From NCBI GenBank assembly GCA_965219575.1, contig OZ244779.1, positions 1,994,585 to 2,058,584 on the forward strand: a stretch of 64,000 nt of DNA, given 5' to 3'. The translations under genes and the position numbers were made by a program. Shown piece after piece: positions 4,375 through 56,760 of this stretch. The notes beneath the pieces were generated by a model that saw nothing but the letters and a program-made list of their open reading frames with translations, was not told the origin of the DNA and did not search any database. Origin of the DNA: Candidatus Oxydemutatoraceae bacterium (GTDB taxonomy: Bacteria > Pseudomonadota > Gammaproteobacteria > Poriferisulfidales > Oxydemutatoraceae). Positions within the stretch are counted from its first letter, which is position 1. Each line of letters starts with the position of its first letter.

Positions 4375-4632
4375 GGGCTGCTGAAAAAGTACCGTTTTGC
4401 ACGAATAATGTTTTGACCCTACCCAATTTATGTTTGCCTACCGTAGGGGCGGACTTATATGTCCGCCCGTAACGCGTTGCGCCTGCACGATTTATACATT
4501 TATTCATCCAATTTATGGAAACCAAAGCCATACAGCGCAGGCGGTTACGGTTATTCTGGACGGTATTTAAGGGCAGACATTAGAGTTGCCGATTGACCTA
4601 TCGGGCGGACATACAAGTCCGCCCCTACAAGC
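4375..4632. repeat. Mosaic intergenic palindromic-unit array (REP/BIME-like)
   Basis: Contains GGGGCTGCTGAAAAAGT, GGGCGGAC-N6-GTCCGCCC twice, and GCCGATTGACC..CAATCGGC modules shared with about 17 other intergenic regions. Confidence 0.85.
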
Positions 4633-4751
4633 TCAATCGGCGGTACTACGTTTAGCTTTTCTTTTTCTCACGGGGGTGTGCGCAACAAGAGAGGAAGTTG
4701 ACCACCAATAATCGGTTCTGGGGATCAAATGCATCGGAATTACACCGACAG

Positions 4752-7180: not shown

Positions 7181-8279
7181 CTAGTAGCCTTGTTTGAGGC
7201 TTTCTTCTATAAAGGCGGTGATATCACCGTCCAATACCGCTTGGGTGTTGGTGTTCTCGTAGCGAGTGCGCAAATCCTTAATTCGTGATTGATCCAACAC
7301 ATAAGAACGGATTTGATTGCCCCAGCCTATATCGGATTTACTCTCTTCCATCGCTTGTTTCTCGGTCAGCTTTTTACGCATTTCCAGTTCGTACAATTTG
7401 GCTTTTAGTTGCTTCATCGCAATACTTTTGTTCTTGTGCTGGGAACGGTCGCTTTGACATTGCACCACGGTCGAGGTCGGTAGGTGCGTAATCCTGACTG
7501 CCGATTCGGTCTTGTTGACATGCTGCCCCCCCGCTCCGCTCGCTCTGTAGACATCTATGCGTAGATCGGCAGGGTTAATCTCTATATCCAATGCGTCGTC
7601 CACCTCGGGGTAGACAAACGCCGAAGCAAAGGAGGTGTGCCGCTTGTTGCCGGCGTTGAACGGCGACTTGCGCACCAAACGATGGATACCGGTTTCGCTA
7701 CGCAACCACCCGTAGGCATAATCCCCTTGTATGTAAACGGTTGCGCTTTTAATTCCGGCAACTTCACCCGGCGATATTTCGGTGATACCGGCCTTAAAAG
7801 ATTGTCGCTCCGCCCACCGCAAATACATGCGTAGTAGCATCTCCGCCCAATCTTGCGCTTCGGTACCACCCGAGCCGGCGTTGATATCCAGATAAGCATT
7901 ATTGGCATCCATCTCGCCGCCGAACATGCGCTGAAACTCAAGGGTTTCGACCTGCTCGCAGATCCGTTGCACATCGTCTCCCAGTGCCGCCAAAGTCTCG
8001 GCATCTTGCTCTTGCTCCACAAGTTCAAGTAAAGCACGGCTGTCGTTTAAACTTTGTTCTAGTGTGGTGAGGCTATTTATAATTTTCTCTAGGGTGCTAC
8101 GTTCTTTGTTTAGGCTACGTACGCGTTCTTGTTGGTTCCATACTGCGTTATCCTCCAGTTCCCTACACAAGACATCGTGGCGTTTTTGCTTTGCGTCAAA
8201 GTCAAAGATACCCCCTCAGCGCATCGCTACGGCGCGTTAGATCTTCTATTTTTTGCTTGATTGTGTTCAATTCTTCCAT
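7181..8279 (-). CDS. prfB: Peptide chain release factor 2 with programmed +1 ribosomal frameshift
   Basis: GGQ motif ([22 protein letters not shown]). The upstream frame [25 protein letters not shown] ends at CTT TGA C, preceded by AGGGGG; the +1 frame continues [10 protein letters not shown]... into ORF 7181..8170. Confidence 0.9.
8191..8206 (-). promoter_or_regulatory. prfB +1 frameshift site (internal SD-like AGGGGG, then UAU CUU UGA C)
   Basis: Reverse complement of 8191-8206 is AGGGGGTATCTTTGAC, the same heptamer as the E. coli prfB recoding site. Confidence 0.85.
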
Positions 8280-8448
8280 AATTAATCCATCAAAGCGATG
8301 ATTGTATCAAATATCGTGCCTAATGAATAGCCGCCGCTTGCTTCATTGGCTCAATCGGCGGAGATTGTATTTTGTAATGTGGGCATTGCTGATATGTTAG
8401 GTTCTGCCCAATGTCACGCCACTTGTGCTACTGCAACAAGTGGCGGTT

Positions 8449-17530: not shown

Positions 17531-17830
17531 ATTTCATATATTACACGGGGCTGTTGAAAAACAGCACCGCCGGTTGTTGCAGTAGCACAAACGGCGTGAT
17601 GTTGTGCAGAAACTTAGGGGCTGTTGAAAAAGTATCCACGAACCGTAGGGGCGGACATCAAAATTGCCGATTGATCTACTGACTCAATCGGCGGCTCTAT
17701 TCTGCCCGTAGCGCGTTGGTCGGCACGATTTATACATTCATCCACCCGATTTATGGAAACCAAAACCATACGGCGCAAGCGGTTGCAATTGTGCGAAACA
17801 GCACTTTTTCAACAGCCTGACCTCTTTGGT
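17531..17830. repeat. Mosaic palindromic-unit array
   Basis: Contains the hairpin CGCCGGTTGT-TGCAGTAGC-ACAAACGGCG (17568-17596), GGGCGGAC, and GCCGATTGA..CAATCGGC. Confidence 0.8.
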
Positions 17831-20787: not shown

Positions 20788-21185
20788 GGGCAGTATAAAG
20801 CCGCCGATTGAGCCGGTAGGTCAATCGGCAACTCTGATGTCTGCCCAAAACGATACCGTTCTGTACAAACTCAACCGCTCGCGCCAACAAATAATGGTTT
20901 CCATAAATTGGATGGATGAATGTATAAATCATGCAGATACGACCGGGCTGTTGAAAAAGTGCGGCATCGTACGAATCCAATCACTTGCGCCATTTTGTTT
21001 TGGTTTCCATAAATTGGATGGATGAATGTATAAATCGTGTAGGCACAACGCGTTACGGGCGGACATGTTAGTCCGCCCCTACAGGTGGGTTGGATAATTA
21101 TGCGGCGCAAGCGGTTACGGTTTTGCAGAACAGTATTTTTTCAACAGCCCCTCGACACAACCACCCCGTCAGGCTTCGCCTGCCT
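20788..21185. repeat. Mosaic palindromic-unit array
   Basis: Shared modules. ORFs 20765..20980, 20871..21110 and 21085..21363 are translations of the repeats. Confidence 0.8.
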
Positions 21186-26027: not shown

Positions 26028-26104
26028 GCGCCCGTAGCTCAGTTGGATAGAGTACCTGGCTACGAACCAGGGGGTCGGAGGTTCGAATCCTTTCGGGCGC
26101 GCCA
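26028..26104 (+). tRNA. tRNA-Arg (anticodon ACG)
   Basis: 77-nt cloverleaf GCGCCCGUAGCUCAGUUGGAUAGAGUACCUGGCUACGAACCAGGGGGUCGGAGGUUCGAAUCCUUUCGGGCGCGCCA, very close to E. coli tRNA-Arg(ACG). Confidence 0.9.
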
Positions 26105-28496: not shown

Positions 28497-28913
28497 ATTA
28501 GGAGTCGCCTGAACAAAGCCTATAGACCCGCGTCCGCCGAGGTTGAGATCAATTTGACGCCGATGTTGGATGTGGTTTTCATACTTTTAATCTTCTTTAT
28601 CATCACCGCCTCGTTCGTTCAGGAAACCGGCATCGAAGTCTCATTGTCGCAAGCAGAATCGGCAGTGCCACAAGAAGATAATCCTATCCGGATAAGCATC
28701 GATCGCTACGGCGAGATTCGGATTAAAGACCAAGCGATGGATATTAGAACATTACAAGGTATGCTACGAAAAATGCACCTTGAAAATCCGCAACGCGCAG
28801 TCGTCATACTTGCCGACAAAGCCTCCGACAATGCGAGTTTGGTTAAAGTACTGGACCGGGTTCATCGTGCCGGAATAGAAAACATTGCCATCGCCGCCGA
28901 GTTGGATGAATAA
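28497..28913 (+). CDS. exbD: ExbD/TolR biopolymer transport protein
   Basis: EINLTPMLDVVFILLIFFII (TM with conserved Asp). Confidence 0.8.
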   Translation: MRSRLNKAYRPASAEVEINLTPMLDVVFILLIFFIITASFVQETGIEVSLSQAESAVPQEDNPIRISIDRYGEIRIKDQAMDIRTLQGMLRKMHLENPQRAVVILADKASDNASLVKVLDRVHRAGIENIAIAAELDE

Positions 28914-29511
28914 AATACTACGCTGGCTTATCGCATTGACGATAGCATCGTTGATTAGCTATGCGCTGTTTGCCGCAGTCGGACAGCTTATAGGAACATT
29001 GCGCTATAACAATCCCTCAAATGATCGCCCTGCCGTATCGATAAATTTCCTGCCTATTTATAAAGATGAACCTAAACAGACCCCTAGTGATTCTCCTTCC
29101 GTGCCGGTGCCGGCGCAAACGCTCAACAATAATACCTATAAAGAACAAAGAGACAAATCGGCACCGATAGACGAAAAGCACAAGACCGAAACACCACCGC
29201 AACCCGAACCGCTATCTATCACTAGACATACTCCTGCAAACCGAGACCTTGGCGCAGTCAGCCTGCAACCGATATTTAGAGTAGAACCGATCTATCCGAT
29301 GTACGCAATCAAGCGAGGTATAGAAGGATGGGTGAGCATAGAGTTTGCGATCACCATGAACGGAAAAGTCGTCAACCCCAAGGTTACCGCATCCGACCCG
29401 CCTCGGATATTTGAAAAAACCGCCCTTAAGGCAATCTCTCAATGGCGTTATCCGCTCGGCAACAAAAGCAAATCAAGCGCACATATTAAGTTTGAACTAC
29501 GCGACCGATAG
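28906..29511 (+). CDS. tonB: TonB energy transducer
   Basis: N-terminal TM, a Pro-rich PPQPEP segment, and the C-terminal fold VEPIYPMYAIKRGIEGWVSIEFAI...NPKV. Confidence 0.75.
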   Translation: MNKILRWLIALTIASLISYALFAAVGQLIGTLRYNNPSNDRPAVSINFLPIYKDEPKQTPSDSPSVPVPAQTLNNNTYKEQRDKSAPIDEKHKTETPPQPEPLSITRHTPANRDLGAVSLQPIFRVEPIYPMYAIKRGIEGWVSIEFAITMNGKVVNPKVTASDPPRIFEKTALKAISQWRYPLGNKSKSSAHIKFELRDR

Positions 29512-29830
29512 AACCGCCGTTTGTTGCAGTAGCACAAATAGCATGACTTTGTGCAGAACCTCAATGTAAATTACGAAATGTAGGGGCGGACTTATCAAAA
29601 TTGCCGATTGACCTACTGGCTCAATCGGCGGCTGTATTCTGCCCGAAACCGTATCATGTTTGCACAATTAACGCGTTTACCATTAATATTATGGAAACCA
29701 TAATTAGGTGGCGCAAGCGGTTGCGGTCATGCAAAATGGTATTTTTTTCAATAGTCCCACGATGCAACCACCCCATGGAGAGGCTTTACATTTTGTAATA
29801 TCTACTAAGATTTTGCACAATGTCCCGCCG
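29512..29830. repeat. Mosaic palindromic-unit array
   Basis: Hairpin GCCGTTTGT-TGCAGTAGC-ACAAATAGC at 29516-29542; GGGCGGAC; GCCGATTGACCTACTGGCTCAATCGGC. Confidence 0.8.
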
Positions 29831-29999
29831 ATTGAACCAGTAGGTCAATCAAGGGCTTCTGCAAGTTCATCCATATTTTTGATACTGTTCGTCGGAAACG
29901 CGAAAAAGCACCCTCTAGCCGAATTTATAATCCGATTACGATTAGACGGCTTGCTATAACGCAGGCTCTTTCTTATAATTCAACTTAAAGAGGTTAAAA

Positions 30000-30671: not shown

Positions 30672-31000
30672 TGCCAAGAGCACGGGCTATTGCGGCTGAC
30701 ACCCCTCCAGAGGAGGGGAATTAACTTGTGCAGATACTTTTGGGACCGTTGAAAAAGTATTGGCACTGCATAAATCCAACTGCTTGCGCCGTATGGTTTT
30801 GGTTTCCATAAATCGGATAGATGAATGTATAAATCGTGCCGACAAACGCGTTACGGGCAGAATAGAGCCGCCGATTGAGCCAGTAGTTCAATCGGCAATT
30901 TTGATGTCCGCCCCTACGGCGGTTTACAAATATTCACGGCGCAAGCGGTTACGGTTGCACGCTGGCGATACTTTTTCAACAGCCCCACGAGGCAACCACA
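30672..31000. repeat. Mosaic palindromic-unit array
   Basis: CCCCTCC..GGAGGGG, GGGCAGAA, GCCGATTGAGCC..CAATCGGC modules. Confidence 0.8.
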
Positions 31001-35281: not shown

Positions 35282-35766
35282 AGCACATATGGGGCTATTG
35301 AAAAAGTATTGGTAGCGCAAAAATCCACCCGCTTGCGCCATGAATTTATAATAACCACCAAGCCGTAGGGACAGACCTGTGTGTCTGCCCTAAAGTACCG
35401 TTCTGCACGGCTGGAACCGCTTGCGCCGTATGGTTTTGGTTTCCATAAATCGGGTGGATGAATGTATCAATCGTGCCGACCAACGCGCTACGGGCGGACA
35501 TGCTAGTCCGCCCCTACAACTTTATGAAATACTTTTTCAACAGCCCCACGACACAACCACCCCGTCAGGCTGAATAGAACCGCCGATTGAACCAGCAGGT
35601 CAATCGGCGTGACTTTGTTCAGAACCTCAACATGACTGCTAAACGCATGCATTGCAAAATGCATAGGCCACCCCTCCATAGGAGGGGAATGTACTAGTAC
35701 TACACTTGTGCAAATTTTCCACGACCACCCGTCGGGCTATGCCTACCGCCCCTACAAGGAGGGGAA
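35282..35766. repeat. Mosaic palindromic-unit array
   Basis: Shared modules (GGGACAGAC..GTCTGCCC, GGGCGGAC..GTCCGCCC, CCCCTCC..GGAGGGG twice). Confidence 0.8.
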
Positions 35767-37599: not shown

Positions 37600-37807
37600 A
37601 GATTGGCAGCAAAAGAGTGACTGCACAAACTGCCACTTCGTCAGGCGAAGCCTGCCACCCTAAGGGCGGACATACAAGTCCGCCCCTACAGGTGGATTGG
37701 ATAATTATACGGCGCATAGCGGTTGGGTTCGTGCAGAACGGTACTTTTTCAACAGCCCCAATGTACCGACACTGTACTTGTGCAGACACACCACAACCGC
37801 CTCGTAT
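37600..37807. repeat. Mosaic palindromic-unit array
   Basis: GGGCGGACATACAAGTCCGCCCCTAC plus the GGTACTTTTTCAACAGCCCC junction motif. Confidence 0.8.
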
Positions 37808-42876: not shown

Positions 42877-43520
42877 TATGATTGTTCAAAATTAGAATTC
42901 GCTTTGCATTATAAAATATCTCCGACAGTAAGTGCTACATAAAAGGCGATATTCCCCTCCTTTGGAGGGGTGGCAGGCGCAGCCTGACGGGGTGGTCGTG
43001 GCGTGGGGGCTGTTGAAAAAGTATCCACGAACCGTAGGGGCGGACTTGCATGTCCGCCCATGACGCGTTGGTCGGCACGATTTATACATTCATTCACCCG
43101 ATTTATGGAAACCAAAACCATGCGGCGCAAGCGGTTGGTGTCGTGCAGAACGGTACTTAAGGGCAGACACACAGGTCTGCCCCTACAGGTGGGTTGGATA
43201 ATTATGTGGCGCAAAGCGGTTGCAATTGTGCAAACACAGTACTTTTTCAACAGCCCCCGGGGTCTTGCACAATGTCACGCCAATTGACCTACTGGCTCAA
43301 TCGGCGGCTCTGTTCTACCTGTAACGCGTTGCGCCTGTACAATTTATACATTTATTCATCCAATTTATGGAAACTAAAACCATACGGCGTAAGCGATTAC
43401 GGCTGTGAAGAACGACACTTTAGGGCAGACACATAAGTCTGCTCCTACAGGTGGGTTGGATAATTATGCGGCGCATAGCGGTTGGGTTCGTGCAGAACAG
43501 TACTTTTTCAACAGCCCCAG
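42877..43520. repeat. Mosaic palindromic-unit array (long)
   Basis: Multiple GGGCGGAC/GGGCAGAC hairpins, CCCCTCC..GGAGGGG, GCCAATTGACC..CAATCGGC. Confidence 0.8.
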
Positions 43521-44826: not shown

Positions 44827-45088
44827 CCTTTTCATGGGATGGTCGCAGTGTGGGGCTGTTGAAAAAGTGCAGGCATTGCACAAATCCAACCGCTGTGCGC
44901 CATTAAATTTATGATAACCACCTGTAGGGGCAGTATAAAGCCGCCGATTGAGCCGGTAGGTCAATCGGCAGTTTAATGAAGTCCGCCCCTACAACTTTAT
45001 GGAATATTTTTTCAACAGCCCCAGCGTATCTGCACAAGCTAATTCCCTTCCTTTGGAGAGGAATGTGCGCCCGACGCTAATGGCTGTT
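44827..45088. repeat. Mosaic palindromic-unit array
   Basis: GCCGATTGAGCCGGTAGGTCAATCGGC, GTCCGCCCCTAC, TTCCCTTCCTTTGGAGAGGAA. Confidence 0.8.
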
Positions 45089-46063: not shown

Positions 46064-46550
46064 TCGATTAGCCTATCTTGTCGCTGGATTTTATCATAAT
46101 GAGGCAGATGTAGGTTTTTGAAAGAATACTGTTTGCAAGGATAATGTGTTTACCCACCAAATTTATTTTAACTACCGTAGGGGAATGTGCTTGTGCAAAT
46201 ACGCGGGGACTGTTGAAAAAGTATCCACGAACCGTAGGGGCGGACTGGCATGTCCGCCCGTAGCGCGTTGGTCGCCACGATTTATACATTCATCCACCCG
46301 ATTTATGGAAACCAAAACCATACGGCGCAAGCGGTTCCAGCCGTGCAGGACGGTACTTTAGGGCAGACATCACAGTTGCCGATTGACCTACCGGCTCAAT
46401 CGGCGGCTTTATACTGCCCCTACGGCTTGGTGGTTATTATAAATTCACGGCGCAAGCGGTTACGGTTGCACGCTGACGATACTTTTTCAACAGCCTCACG
46501 CCGCGACCACCCCGTCAGGCTGCGCCTGCCACCCCTCCAAAGGAGGGGAA
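46064..46550. repeat. Mosaic palindromic-unit array
   Basis: Shared modules. Confidence 0.8.
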
Positions 46551-50412: not shown

Positions 50413-50800
50413 ATCTGCCAACTATTCCCCTCCTTTGGAGGGGTGGCAGGCGCAGCCTGACGGGGTGGTTGTATCGTGGGGCTGTTGAAAAAGTATCCAC
50501 GAACCGTAGGACGGTACATTCCCCTCCTTCGGAGGGGTGGCAGGCGCAGCCTGACGGGGTGGTCGCCGGGGTCTTGCACAATGTCACGCCGATTGACCTA
50601 CTGGCTCAATCGGCGGCTTTATACTGCCCCCACCACTCTATGAAATACTTTTTCAACAGTCCCATCGTATCTGCAAGATTTATACATTACATCCAACCAA
50701 TTTATGGAAACCATTATTTGTTGGCGCAAGCGGTTGGATTTTTGCGCTACCAATACTTTTTCAACAGCCCCACATTACTACTTTGTGCTTACAGTACGAC
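50413..50800. repeat. Mosaic palindromic-unit array
   Basis: CCCCTCC..GGAGGGG three times; GCCGATTGACC..CAATCGGC. Confidence 0.8.
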
Positions 50801-51415
50801 CATAACTTATTGAAAATCATATGCAGTTTCATTAAACTATCAGACACAAACAACAACGGTACCACCGCATAAAGGGTGTGCCGGAGCTAACGTATCAAAA
50901 TACTCAACTATAAGGTTTGTAAAACATGAAAATACCCTCGATGACAACATTCGCAACCGTAATGTTAGATGTTTATGTGGCTCACTATCACAAAGATTTC
51001 ATAGCGGATGGATTAGAAGACACAACGGATACTGCATTTTACGACAAAGTAATTGAACTACATCCTAAGTTGGTTGCTGCTTACTATTGCAGGGCCCTAG
51101 TCAGGGGTAAATTAAGAGATGATGCCGGCGCACTTGCAGATTTTGACCATGTAATTAAGTTAGATAAGAAGAATCAAGATGTTTATCATATGAGAGCTTT
51201 CACCAAGAATAAATTAGGAAATTTTCAAGGAGCGATTGTGGACTTAAATAGATTCCTTAAAAAGAACCCTCAGAATAGTTCCGCCTACAATATCCGAGGT
51301 TTTTCTAAATTTAAATTAAGAGACTACAAAGGGGCAGCCAAGGACTTCGACAAAATGATCGAACTAGAACCGAATTATGCTACCGGCTATGATTTTAGAG
51401 GCCTTAATAAAGTTA

Positions 51416-52805: not shown

Positions 52806-53128
52806 TCCGTAGGGGCTAACCATTCCCTTCCCCTATATATATCCGATTTTTGCATAACTCCAACCGCTTGCGCCACTTAATTTACGATAACCCCCTGACG
52901 GACAATTCTCCTCCTTCGGAGAGGTGGCCTACGCATTTTGCAATGTATGCGTTTAGCAATCATGTTGAAGTTCTGAACAAAGTCACGCCGATTGACCTAC
53001 TGGTTCAATCGGCAGTTCTATTCAGCCTGACGGGATGGTCGCAGAAGTGGGGCTGTTGAAAAAGTACCGTTGCGCACGAATTCAATCGCTTTGCGCCACA
53101 TAGTTATGATAACCACAAAGTCGCAGTG
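52806..53128. repeat. Mosaic palindromic-unit array
   Basis: Shared modules. Confidence 0.8.
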
Positions 53129-54199: not shown

Positions 54200-54533
54200 G
54201 TCGTGCAGATACACGAGGCTATTGAAAAAGTGCCGTGCTGTATGAACTCAACCGCTTGCGCCGGATGGTTTTGGTTTTATGAATTAGATGACGTACGATT
54301 TTATTATGCAAACACGACGCGTGTTCGGGCGGATATCATAATGGCCGATTTACCTACCGGCTCAATCGGCGGTGTTATTGCGCCTGCCACCCCTCTACAG
54401 GAGGGGAATGATCCGCTCCTACACATGTCGGTTACATTGCAGTTCTATTTTTCAACAGCCCCCCTTAGCGACCACCCCGTCAGGCTGCGCCTGCCACCCC
54501 TCCACAGGAGGGGAATAAAAAGATTGGCCTTGA
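54200..54533. repeat. Mosaic palindromic-unit array
   Basis: GCCGATTTACCTACCGGCTCAATCGGC and CCCCTC..GGAGGGG twice. Confidence 0.8.
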
Positions 54534-56391: not shown

Positions 56392-56760
56392 ATTTGATTA
56401 TCCCTTAATTAACTTTAATTTATATGCAATTATATAATAAATTACTTTGCCCTTCCCTTATTTTTAAGGTCACTTTTGTACTGGTGCAGATACGACGGGG
56501 CTGTTGAAAAAATACTGTTCTGCAAAACTGTAACCGCTTGCGCCATTTGGTTTTGGTTTCCATAAATTGAATAAATAAATGTATAAATTGTGCAGGCACA
56601 ACGCGTTACGGGCGGACATGCAAGTCCGCCCCTACAGCGGTTTATAGATATTCACGGCGCAAGCGGTTGCGGCTATTCTGGAACGGTACTTTAGGGCGGA
56701 CACACAGGTCCGCCCCTACGGGTGGTTTGTAAATATTCGTGGCGCAGAGCAGTTCTAATT
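56392..56760. repeat. Mosaic palindromic-unit array
   Basis: Two GGGCGGAC-N6-GTCCGCCC hairpins and CGGCGCAAGCGGTTGCGG modules. Confidence 0.8.

Follow-up and report, generated by a model that had tools for sequence, protein, structure and literature searches.

The 64,000-nt stretch analysed here (the window; contig OZ244779.1 of a Candidatus Oxydemutatoraceae bacterium) carries four short hairpins between or beside its genes, all sharing the 9-mer GCTACTGCA, and these hairpins are the subject of this study. The motif has exactly four matches in the window (8427 and 12231 on the + strand, 17578 and 29525 on the - strand) against 0.30 expected, a count reached by 0 of 100 shuffles, and an inverted repeat able to form a hairpin surrounds each of them, in agreement with the four loci reported by the first-pass annotation. 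The neighbouring genes are two unannotated open reading frames (ORFs) with their ends at 8449 and 12273, a TonB_C gene ending at 29511 and a GLUG gene with its start at 17530, the identities of the latter two having been recognised correctly. Three copies lie 4-24 nt past stop codons and the remaining one 38 nt upstream of the GLUG gene start, as had been described. Taking the window together with related genomes, we conclude that the hairpin is probably the palindromic core of a lineage-specific, high-copy extragenic mobile DNA repeat, resembling repetitive extragenic palindromes (REPs) and miniature inverted-repeat transposable elements (MITEs), rather than a free-standing RNA motif.

The four copies differ in their preservation. 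Copy 1 (8400..8452, + strand), a GCCAC member with a perfect stem, consists of GGTTCTGCCCAATGTCAC, the hairpin at 8418-8444 and GGTTCTAT, and scores 75.8 bits (E 2.7e-18) with the covariance model described below; its 3' flank provides the stop of ORF 8449..9831, the CTA at 8449-8451 being TAG on the - strand. Copy 2 (12204..12256, + strand; 55.4 bits), of GTTCC type and likewise perfectly paired, has its hairpin at 12222-12248, ten bases off the 12212-12238 given previously. It interrupts an older GCCAC-type hairpin whose leftover 3' arm TTGCAACAAGTGGC (12255..12268, + strand) is separated by 4 nt from the stop of ORF 12273..13952 (codon 12273-12275). Copy 3 (17561..17613, - strand; hairpin 17569-17595; 60.8 bits), a GCCGT member, has one unpaired position (arm ACAACCGGC versus master ACAAACGGC) and is joined to the terminal repeat GGGGCTGTTGAAAAA (17547-17561) of an insertion sequence (IS) of the IS1182 type, the repeat of the next element following at 17617-17631. 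Copy 4 (29508..29560, - strand; hairpin 29516-29542; 67.7 bits) is a decayed GCCGT member in which one arm has changed at two positions (GCTATTTGT versus GCCGTTTGT), and here the hairpin is not the minimum-energy fold; its ATAGAACC tail ends the TonB_C gene 28885..29511 by providing the TAG codon (29509-29511). DNA fold z-scores for copies 1 to 4 are -4.9, -4.7, -2.6 and -2.1, with a fold of -13.6 kcal/mol for copy 1. Perfect stems are thus confined to copies 1 and 2; contrary to the proposal that compensatory changes keep all stems paired, copies 3 and 4 are decaying members of the GCCGT subfamily and not compensated variants.

Family-wide, the 27-nt hairpin pairs 9 bp in its stem and 2 bp in a short inner helix, separated by a 1-nt bulge on the 3' side, with TACT (in some copies TACC) as the tetraloop. 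What had been taken for an invariant 9-nt loop is more aptly described as 2 bp (GC/GC), TACT and the 1-nt 3' bulge, and ViennaRNA folds copies 1 and 2 in this manner. A loop-agnostic scan and the covariance model brought up the loop variants GCAACTGCA, CCTGCTGGA, CCAACTGGA, GCCACCGCA and GCCACTGCA, and a window copy at 35574-35626 carries CCTGCTGGT, so that the loop is conserved but not invariant; among the collected copies with a TAC[TC] loop, only CTAC and one G never change. The four copies share the class I form, GCCnnTTGT-GC-TACT-GC-A-ACAAnnGGC, and the dominant form in the window is class II, GCCGATTGA-CC-TACT-GG-C-TCAATCGGC, the inner 2-bp helix covarying between the classes (GC/GC versus CC/GG). 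The conserved unit extends to about 53 nt and comprises GGTTCTGCACAAAGTCAC, the 27-nt hairpin and then GGTTCTAT.

A geometric scan of the window found this architecture about 17 times, and a covariance model trained on related genomes only, with the window left out, detected 18 full copies in the 64 kb (E<=8.7e-6), all four originals among them. In total the window holds about 19 family copies, about 15 of which, besides the originals, are class II. The four hairpins are a minor subfamily within a bigger family.

Scanning 185,579 species genomes with the 17-mer TTGTGCTACTGCAACAA returned at least 108 blocks. Among the matches listed, 64 blocks fall in three 'Candidatus Porisulfidus' metagenome-assembled genomes, each with many matches and the only genomes with multi-copy matches, and the others are single matches in unrelated taxa, at about the chance level for a 17-mer. 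The window represents a fourth genome of the Porisulfidus group (best match OZ244052.1, 90.7% identity over 6.3 kb). In control loci from other taxa (328 kb) the covariance model picked up nothing beyond the searched 17-mer, at 19.8 bits apart from one outlier of 31 bits. From 576 kb, i.e. the window and 512 kb of the three Porisulfidus genomes, we collected 143 copies representing 38 distinct 27-mers; because the relatives' loci were fetched with a class I 17-mer, this sample is skewed to class I. That four unrelated hairpins share a 9-mer by chance, a view in favour of which only the small number in the original observation (four) can be cited, is refuted and retains practically no probability: none of the shuffles gives four matches, the flanks are homologous over 53 nt, 18 model matches with E<1e-5 lie in the window, and 143 copies are spread over four genomes.

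The stem variants prove to be discrete, multi-copy, perfectly palindromic subfamilies common to the four genomes. At least eight such subfamilies are present, most of them in several genomes, including GCCGT (32 copies), GCCAC (13), GTTCC (8), ACCAC (5) and GCCAT (3) in class I and GCCGA (46) and GCCAC (5) in class II. Over the 38 distinct copies, pairing is kept in 96.4% of cells, with changes on both sides at 8 of the 11 pairs, a level of covariation reached by 0 of 500 shuffles and by no slid register near it. The stem covariation is therefore genuine, but it lies between discrete amplified subfamilies, and in the window itself it comes solely from GCCAC versus GTTCC (versus the GCCGT master). 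The signature of a conserved loop with a covarying stem, on which the first-pass annotation built, is real; the RNA-motif reading drawn from it is not supported. In a few copies (L112:3580-3606, L087 near 3399 and two aligned copies; L numbers denote loci of the relatives) the loop is flipped relative to the flanks, and others have a GGTTCTA-type flank on both sides (TAGAACC[hairpin]GGTTCTA), resulting in a longer perfect palindrome; flipped loops and symmetric flanks suggest strand-switching within the palindrome.

The intergenic DNA of the window is a patchwork of repeat families, and the hairpin is embedded in it. Repeated DNA continues beyond the 53-nt unit on at least one side in 140 of the 143 copies and on both sides in 107; the three copies with neither flank repeated at the threshold used still show fragments of neighbouring modules on inspection. 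A location always within a larger mobile repeat, named beforehand as evidence that would speak against an RNA motif, is thus largely what was found, with 31 copies abutting an IS1182-family terminal inverted repeat. Only the right flank is unique in 30 copies and only the left flank in 3, which identifies the hairpin as the module that closes composite units on their right-hand side; directly after GGTTC(TA), unique DNA begins.

These units comprise at least five recurrent carrier contexts: (a) a unit of 150 nt framed by the inverted terminal repeats GGGRCTGTTGAAAAA...TTTTTCAACAGCCCC, holding most GCCGT copies of two genomes; (b) a unit of about 115 nt, termed V+H, with a second hairpin GGACAAGCC-TTA-GCTTGTCC near its left end; (c) units of 135-140 nt, e.g. 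window 10051-10187 and four more, which are frequent in the window and in the closest relative; (d) nesting in a GTAG-type REP (GTAGGGGCGGAC...TCTGCCCC), seen in 6 of the 13 window class II copies classified by regular expression; and (e) for the GTTCC subfamily, a position inside the loop of an older GCCGT hairpin, with the older 5' arm before and the 3' arm after it. Among the originals, copy 1 is a (c)-type unit abutting a gene end, copy 2 is an (e) member in which only the older 3' arm (12255-12268), beside the stop codon, has been kept, and copy 4 is a unit lying directly at the tonB stop. An interpretation of GGTTCT as the target duplication of a 45-nt element is contradicted by the REP-nested copies, which have no left GGTTCT.

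The class II copies of the window reflect these contexts. Five sit inside repeats of about 140 nt: 10071..10123 (- strand, repeat 10051-10187; 79.6 bits), 35574..35626 (- strand, the copy with loop CCTGCTGGT, repeat 35555-35698; 71.1 bits), 52969..53021 (+ strand, bulge T, repeat 52896-53039; 73.4 bits), 63373..63425 (+ strand, repeat 63309-63445; 74.9 bits) and 63790..63842 (+ strand, repeat 63726-63861; 74.9 bits). Nested in REPs are 17648..17700 (+ strand, inner pair TC/GA, in the loop of a GTAG-type REP GTAGGGGCGGAC...TCTGCCCGTAG; 52.5 bits), 20795..20847 (- strand, TACC loop; 48.2 bits), 29588..29637 (+ strand, about 50 nt from copy 4; 47.7 bits), 30862..30914 (- strand; 50.5 bits) and 46360..46412 (+ strand, TACC loop, REP of GGGCAGAC type; 45.9 bits). 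The others are 43261..43313 (+ strand, one stem mismatch; 67.4 bits), 44935..44987 (- strand, TACC loop; 47.2 bits), 50570..50622 (+ strand; 75.2 bits), a diverged copy at 54330..54378 (+ strand, stem GCCGATTTA, TACC loop; 30.1 bits, E 8.7e-6) and a partial, degenerate copy at 29830..29850 (- strand, hairpin 29827-29853 with decayed outer stem; 24.4 bits over model positions 22-42).

The canonical GTAG-tagged REP reads GTAGGGGCGGAC-N6-GTCCGCCCCTAC, with a compensated variant GGGCAGAC/GTCTGCCC, and two of the relatives (A and B) use GGGAGGGC/GCCCTCCC instead. Window members lie at 4440-4479, 4596-4635, 12141-12180, 21050-21089, 35485-35524, 37657-37696, 43031-43070, 46231-46270, 56603-56642, 63148-63187, 63477-63516 and 63600-63639. 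GTAG-REP loops host insertions of both the hairpin module and IS1182-type MITEs. The most abundant long repeat of the window is a further element, the T module (..CCGCTTGCGCC..GGTTTTGGTTTCCAT..), with 16 + 9 copies, e.g. 63221-63289 and 12034-12131.

One relative carries two copies of a full 1815-bp insertion sequence bearing the terminal repeats of such MITEs (L101:2396-4210 and L030:119-1933); the encoded protein of 576 aa belongs to the IS1182-family transposases (NF033551, 379 bits against a cut-off of 270; DUF772 and DDE_Tnp_1_6 domains). The terminal repeat of this element, GGGRCTGTTGAAAAA, has 25 matches in the window, e.g. at 10218/10412, 30742/30972, 35291/35533, 43006/43243, 44852/45008 and 50478/50649. 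Outside the full insertion sequence, inward-facing pairs of the 15-17-nt terminal repeats are 141-257 nt apart, which makes these units MITEs. The 31 hairpin copies that abut such a repeat include 22 class I copies of genomes A and B and, among the four originals, only copy 3. MITEs as well as the full insertion sequence sit in REP loops with ACAT on both sides (a MITE in L086, the insertion sequence in L101).

Comparison of orthologous sites gives further evidence of mobility. In L086 a 277-nt block containing a MITE and a hairpin occupies a REP loop, and the REP is intact at the orthologous L054 site. At another orthologous site a 150-nt MITE is inverted (L091:2643-2762 versus L108:1421-1541), which could be due to recombination between the terminal repeats or to an independent insertion in opposite orientation, and in three genomes one orthologous spacer has lengths of 49, 289 and 681 nt. 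Presence, absence and inversion between sister genomes characterise the carriers as mobile DNA and not as a conserved regulatory site.

Against this background the position of the hairpins relative to genes can be evaluated. When only ORFs of 150 aa or more are counted as genes, 36 of 59 convergent spacers hold copies, as do 48 of 249 tandem and 10 of 44 divergent ones. In seven cases, copies 1 and 4 included, the distance from a copy to an ORF end is just 3-4 nt and the T(A)GAACC terminus forms a TAG or TGA stop. Thirty copies appear to lie inside ORFs, mostly ORFs of 91-190 aa running through repeat clusters, or no more than about 30 nt from a predicted start; within ORFs of at least 150 aa there are only 6. 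ORFs of 90-280 aa through repeat clusters, e.g. 9868..10254, 50469..50813 and 63167..63997, are likely spurious and would mislead automated annotation.

This distribution bears on a cis-acting RNA at mRNA 3' ends, kept by selection as an exonuclease barrier, as a site for an RNase or RNA-binding protein or as a stop-proximal regulator. Such a role would agree with the enrichment in convergent spacers, with the stable stems (z about -4.8) and the significant stem covariation, with the proposal that REPs act as RNA once transcribed (PMC3733652) and, above all, with polarity, which is the same in three of the four original window copies and in 26 of the 29 copies less than 70 nt from a gene 3' end, where the mRNA would carry the AGUA strand. 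The polarity, however, is a matter of geometry: because the hairpin lies 7 nt from the right end of 115-150-nt units, only copies inserted right end first come near genes. At distances above 150 nt the ratio reverses to 14:31, and the overall figure of 55:49 shows no net transcription-strand bias. Stratification by distance, together with the flank asymmetry, rules out the orientation bias at gene ends (26:3) as an RNA signal, and with it the main argument for a strand-specific RNA role is gone.

Further observations oppose an RNA element. G-T mismatches do not meaningfully exceed A-C mismatches (16:9), a comparison that is uninformative since the filter counts G-T as paired and thereby favours G-T. 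The decayed copy 4 persists at its gene end, copies are gained, lost and inverted at orthologous spacers, and copies also occur in 5' regions and within other repeats. Rfam 15 at gathering score matched only a tRNA (26028-26101) in the window. The flanks GGTTCTAT and GTGACTTTGTGC contain no U-tract, and an intrinsic terminator scan made no call on the hairpin register, with 11 sites against 9.5 in shuffles, confirming that the hairpin is not a canonical terminator. Altogether we regard a selected RNA function as improbable. A scan of viral contigs with a class-spanning pattern gave 3 matches, none with a hairpin, and an integron attC site was rejected on inspection, the flanks not fitting RYYYAAC/GTTRRRY (no integrase search was made).

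Turning from function to spread, the hairpin could be a pure passenger that plays no part in its own spread, a piece of cargo which an IS1182-derived MITE and other composites picked up on one occasion, its palindromy kept or restored by mutation alone (template switching within quasi-palindromes) and its subfamilies merely marking the carriers. The full insertion sequence with the same terminal repeats, the 31 of 143 copies (with the 22 class I copies of genomes A and B) abutting such repeats, the separate conserved carrier context of each subfamily and the failure to find a solo unit are all consistent with this, as are the lack of replication-strand bias and the flipped loops and symmetric TAGAACC[hairpin]GGTTCTA flanks, both signatures of strand-switching. 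Yet the 27-nt core and its right flank recur in at least five unrelated carriers, always at the right end, which is hard to derive from a single capture. Moreover, the loop core and the position of the bulge are conserved across classes while 8 of the 11 stem pairs vary, pointing to a constraint on specific features, and class II copies accompany genes related to REP-associated tyrosine transposases (RAYTs) at three of four loci. A pure passenger is accordingly a quite unlikely explanation of the whole family.

The RAYT-like gene was reached by a tblastn search of the 576 kb of Porisulfidus DNA with E. coli RayT, whose one weak match (E 0.72) led to a Y1 gene in L011; a second copy of the Y1 gene was not found in this sample. 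The ORF (L011:6487-6975) contains the HUH and Y motifs and matches PF01797 Y1_Tnp above the cut-off (E 9.6e-7), and several homologues are labelled RayT by JGI. Homologous genes with 72-98% mutual identity lie at L011:6487-6975, L110:3001-3567, L111:3001-3552 and L112:3001-3564, in four different genomic neighbourhoods, none of them in the window. A class II copy is located 16-52 nt past the stop of the RAYT-like gene at three of the four loci, and another 300-380 nt upstream. The apparent N-terminus of the L011 ORF is translated repeat sequence. Of the three readings offered by the first-pass annotation, a RAYT recognition hairpin therefore comes closest, given the RAYT-like genes and the copies near three of four, and both RNA readings are unsupported.

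We propose that the palindromic mobile repeat spreads in two ways. In part, copies would travel as passengers of IS1182-type MITEs, moved by the DDE transposase and targeting REP loops. Carriers without terminal repeats would instead spread as folded single-stranded DNA (ssDNA) handled by the RAYT-like HUH/Y1 enzyme, a step we put forward tentatively and rate somewhat below an even chance. By analogy with E. coli TnpA-REP, recognition by the enzyme would rest on the stem with its bulge, the loop containing CTAC and the GGTTCT flank; if only the fold and these contacts are needed, master copies could change both arms, and strand-switching in the palindrome may also restore arm symmetry. Effects at the RNA level, such as those of a stable hairpin 3-4 nt past a stop, would be secondary to the landing place.

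Several results weigh against a mobile palindromic repeat of this kind and in particular against its RAYT component. Mobilisation is deduced indirectly, and among the 143 copies neither a solo 53-nt unit nor an empty site for the unit alone was convincing, so the hairpin may never move on its own. The terminal GTAG/CGTC tag is absent, the tail on the AGTA strand being ATAGAACC in 89 of 97 copies. For the full-length RAYT-like homologue, the best NCBIfam match, NF047646 REP_Tyr_transpos, reaches 47.6 bits and thus falls below the 80-bit equivalog cut-off. At all four loci the RAYT-like gene is bracketed by inverted T modules and GTAG-REPs, not by the hairpin module, and the two hairpins near each gene are in direct, not inverted, orientation. 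The proximity of hairpin and RAYT-like gene is suggestive without being the arrangement that defines a REPtron, hairpins lying next to the 3' ends of many other genes too, and the link is circumstantial. Lastly, hairpin orientation shows no bias relative to the GC skew of 8-kb blocks (Fisher p 0.64-1.0), which gives no support to simple ssDNA insertion on the lagging strand, as this would predict a bias.

A bolder version of the mobile-repeat explanation is that the hairpin and its GGTTCT flanks are the right-end recognition hairpin of still-active tiny ssDNA transposons, served in trans by the RAYT-like enzyme and landing preferentially in exposed hairpin loops, i.e. REP loops and the hairpin's own loop. 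We consider this unlikely, although its consequences would be of interest: mosaic intergenic arrays would grow by hairpin-in-hairpin nesting, a copy landing in a stop codon would rebuild the stop through its T(A)GAACC end, and Porisulfidus would be a natural system in which a RAYT-driven, REP-like spread is recent enough to be read from sister genomes.

The family also serves as a cautionary case, since amplified DNA palindromes mimic the RNA signature of conserved loop and covarying stem, each subfamily being a separately copied master. Our literature search found no paper on Porisulfidus repeats. A dense, modular and apparently recently active intergenic repeat system in this little-studied sponge-symbiont lineage, which we take, also from papers mentioning the genus, to be related to SUP05, is of modest specialist interest. 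It has three interacting layers, namely the GTAG-REPs with the RAYT-like gene, the IS1182-type MITEs targeting REP loops, and the hairpin module, and the sister genomes, differing at the same sites at 85-95% identity, can be used to reconstruct mosaic growth. For annotation, these repeats account for spurious ORFs, for gene ends that are altered and for assembly-prone regions in the genomes concerned.

Other features of the window were noted alongside. A release-factor gene (ORF 7181..8170; PCRF and RF-1 domains) has a TTG start and lacks its N-terminus; upstream of it, at 8201-8216 on the - strand, lies AGGGGGTATCTTTGAC, presumably the classic +1 programmed-frameshift site of RF2 (prfB), with an AGGGGG resembling a Shine-Dalgarno sequence followed by CUU UGA C. 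Large ORFs in the surroundings of the GLUG and Calx-beta genes contain long in-frame tandem repeats (14754-15320, 63-nt; 14105-14434, 66-nt; 13092-13706, 123-nt; 13-450 and 1613-1868, 84-nt) and resemble adhesin-type proteins whose repeat number varies. A 300-nt duplicate of 95% identity (9733-10032 and 11820-12119) spans the 5' ends and upstream regions of the neighbouring ORFs 8449..9831 and 10509..11918, the same repeat cluster lying upstream of both.

Among known systems, palindrome-associated elements (PATEs) of the IS200/IS605 type are moved as ssDNA by Y1 transposases. The V+H units (about 115 nt) resemble them in that they lack terminal inverted repeats and have two distinct hairpins, one close to either end, and unique DNA resumes a few nt past the right-end hairpin, as at a cleavage site 3' of a hairpin foot. 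They differ in that no IS200/IS605 tnpA or tnpB with these ends was found, in lacking a replication-orientation bias and in having no definable left boundary or target motif.

IS1272, a member of the IS1182 family, offers a second comparison. Its 'IR-replacing' transposition targets inverted-repeat structures and produces no target duplication (PMC5678879). About one fifth of the hairpin copies lie in 141-257-nt units with the terminal repeats of the full insertion sequence, and MITEs and insertion sequence alike sit in REP hairpin loops, echoing the inverted-repeat targets. Unlike IS1272, however, for which no bases are duplicated, the inserts here are flanked by the 4-nt ACAT; the hairpin lies inside the units as cargo joined to one terminal repeat and does not itself form that repeat; and most window copies, three of the four originals included, have no such repeat nearby.

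The closest likeness is to REPs and bacterial interspersed mosaic elements. REPs comprise GTAG- and CGTC-tagged superfamilies, favour convergent and unidirectional spacers near ORF 3' ends, may supply stop codons with their termini, and have been described nested in other palindromes, in multi-family mosaic arrays and as subfamilies whose stem changes are complementary (Di Nocera et al. 2013, PMC3733652); the E. coli enzyme TnpA-REP requires a conserved motif ahead of a palindrome that has a bulge (PMC8266576). The hairpin module shares the palindrome of 20-40 nt (here 27 nt), the high copy number and extragenic location, the subfamilies with alternative complementary residues in a bulged stem, inner closures of GC/GC versus GGC/GCC type as described for GTAG-3 loops, the preference for convergent and unidirectional spacers near ORF 3' ends with supply of TAG stops, the clustering in mosaic arrays and the nesting in other palindromes. 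It departs from REPs in having no terminal GTAG/CGTC, the tail being ATAGAACC or, in 8 of 97 copies, GTAGAACC, with the CTAC/GTAG motif placed in the loop; in a 5' flank (NGTYAC) that gives CGTC only in a minority; in being almost never solo and always at one end of a larger repeat; and in coexisting with the canonical GTAG-REP of the genome as a separate module.

In REPtrons and REPINs, RAYT genes are accompanied by cognate REPs (Nunvar 2010, PMC2817692; Bertels & Rainey 2011, PMC3116915). The Porisulfidus loci, too, place a RAYT-like gene in a modular repeat cluster, with family copies 16-52 nt past the stop at three of four, and comprise hairpin-forming repeats with within-genome subfamilies; inverted T modules and GTAG-REPs around the gene form the classical REPtron or TIRtron layout (PMC2817692; PMC3733652). 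In contrast to a cognate REP, the hairpin module stands in direct orientation within these T-module and GTAG-REP brackets, and no doublet organisation was established for it. Lacking the tag and not being the RAYT-bracketing repeat, it is classified here neither as a GTAG-REP nor as a REPtron's cognate REP. Overall, the hairpin module is a lineage-specific example of a familiar REP/MITE-type bacterial repeat and not a new RNA motif.

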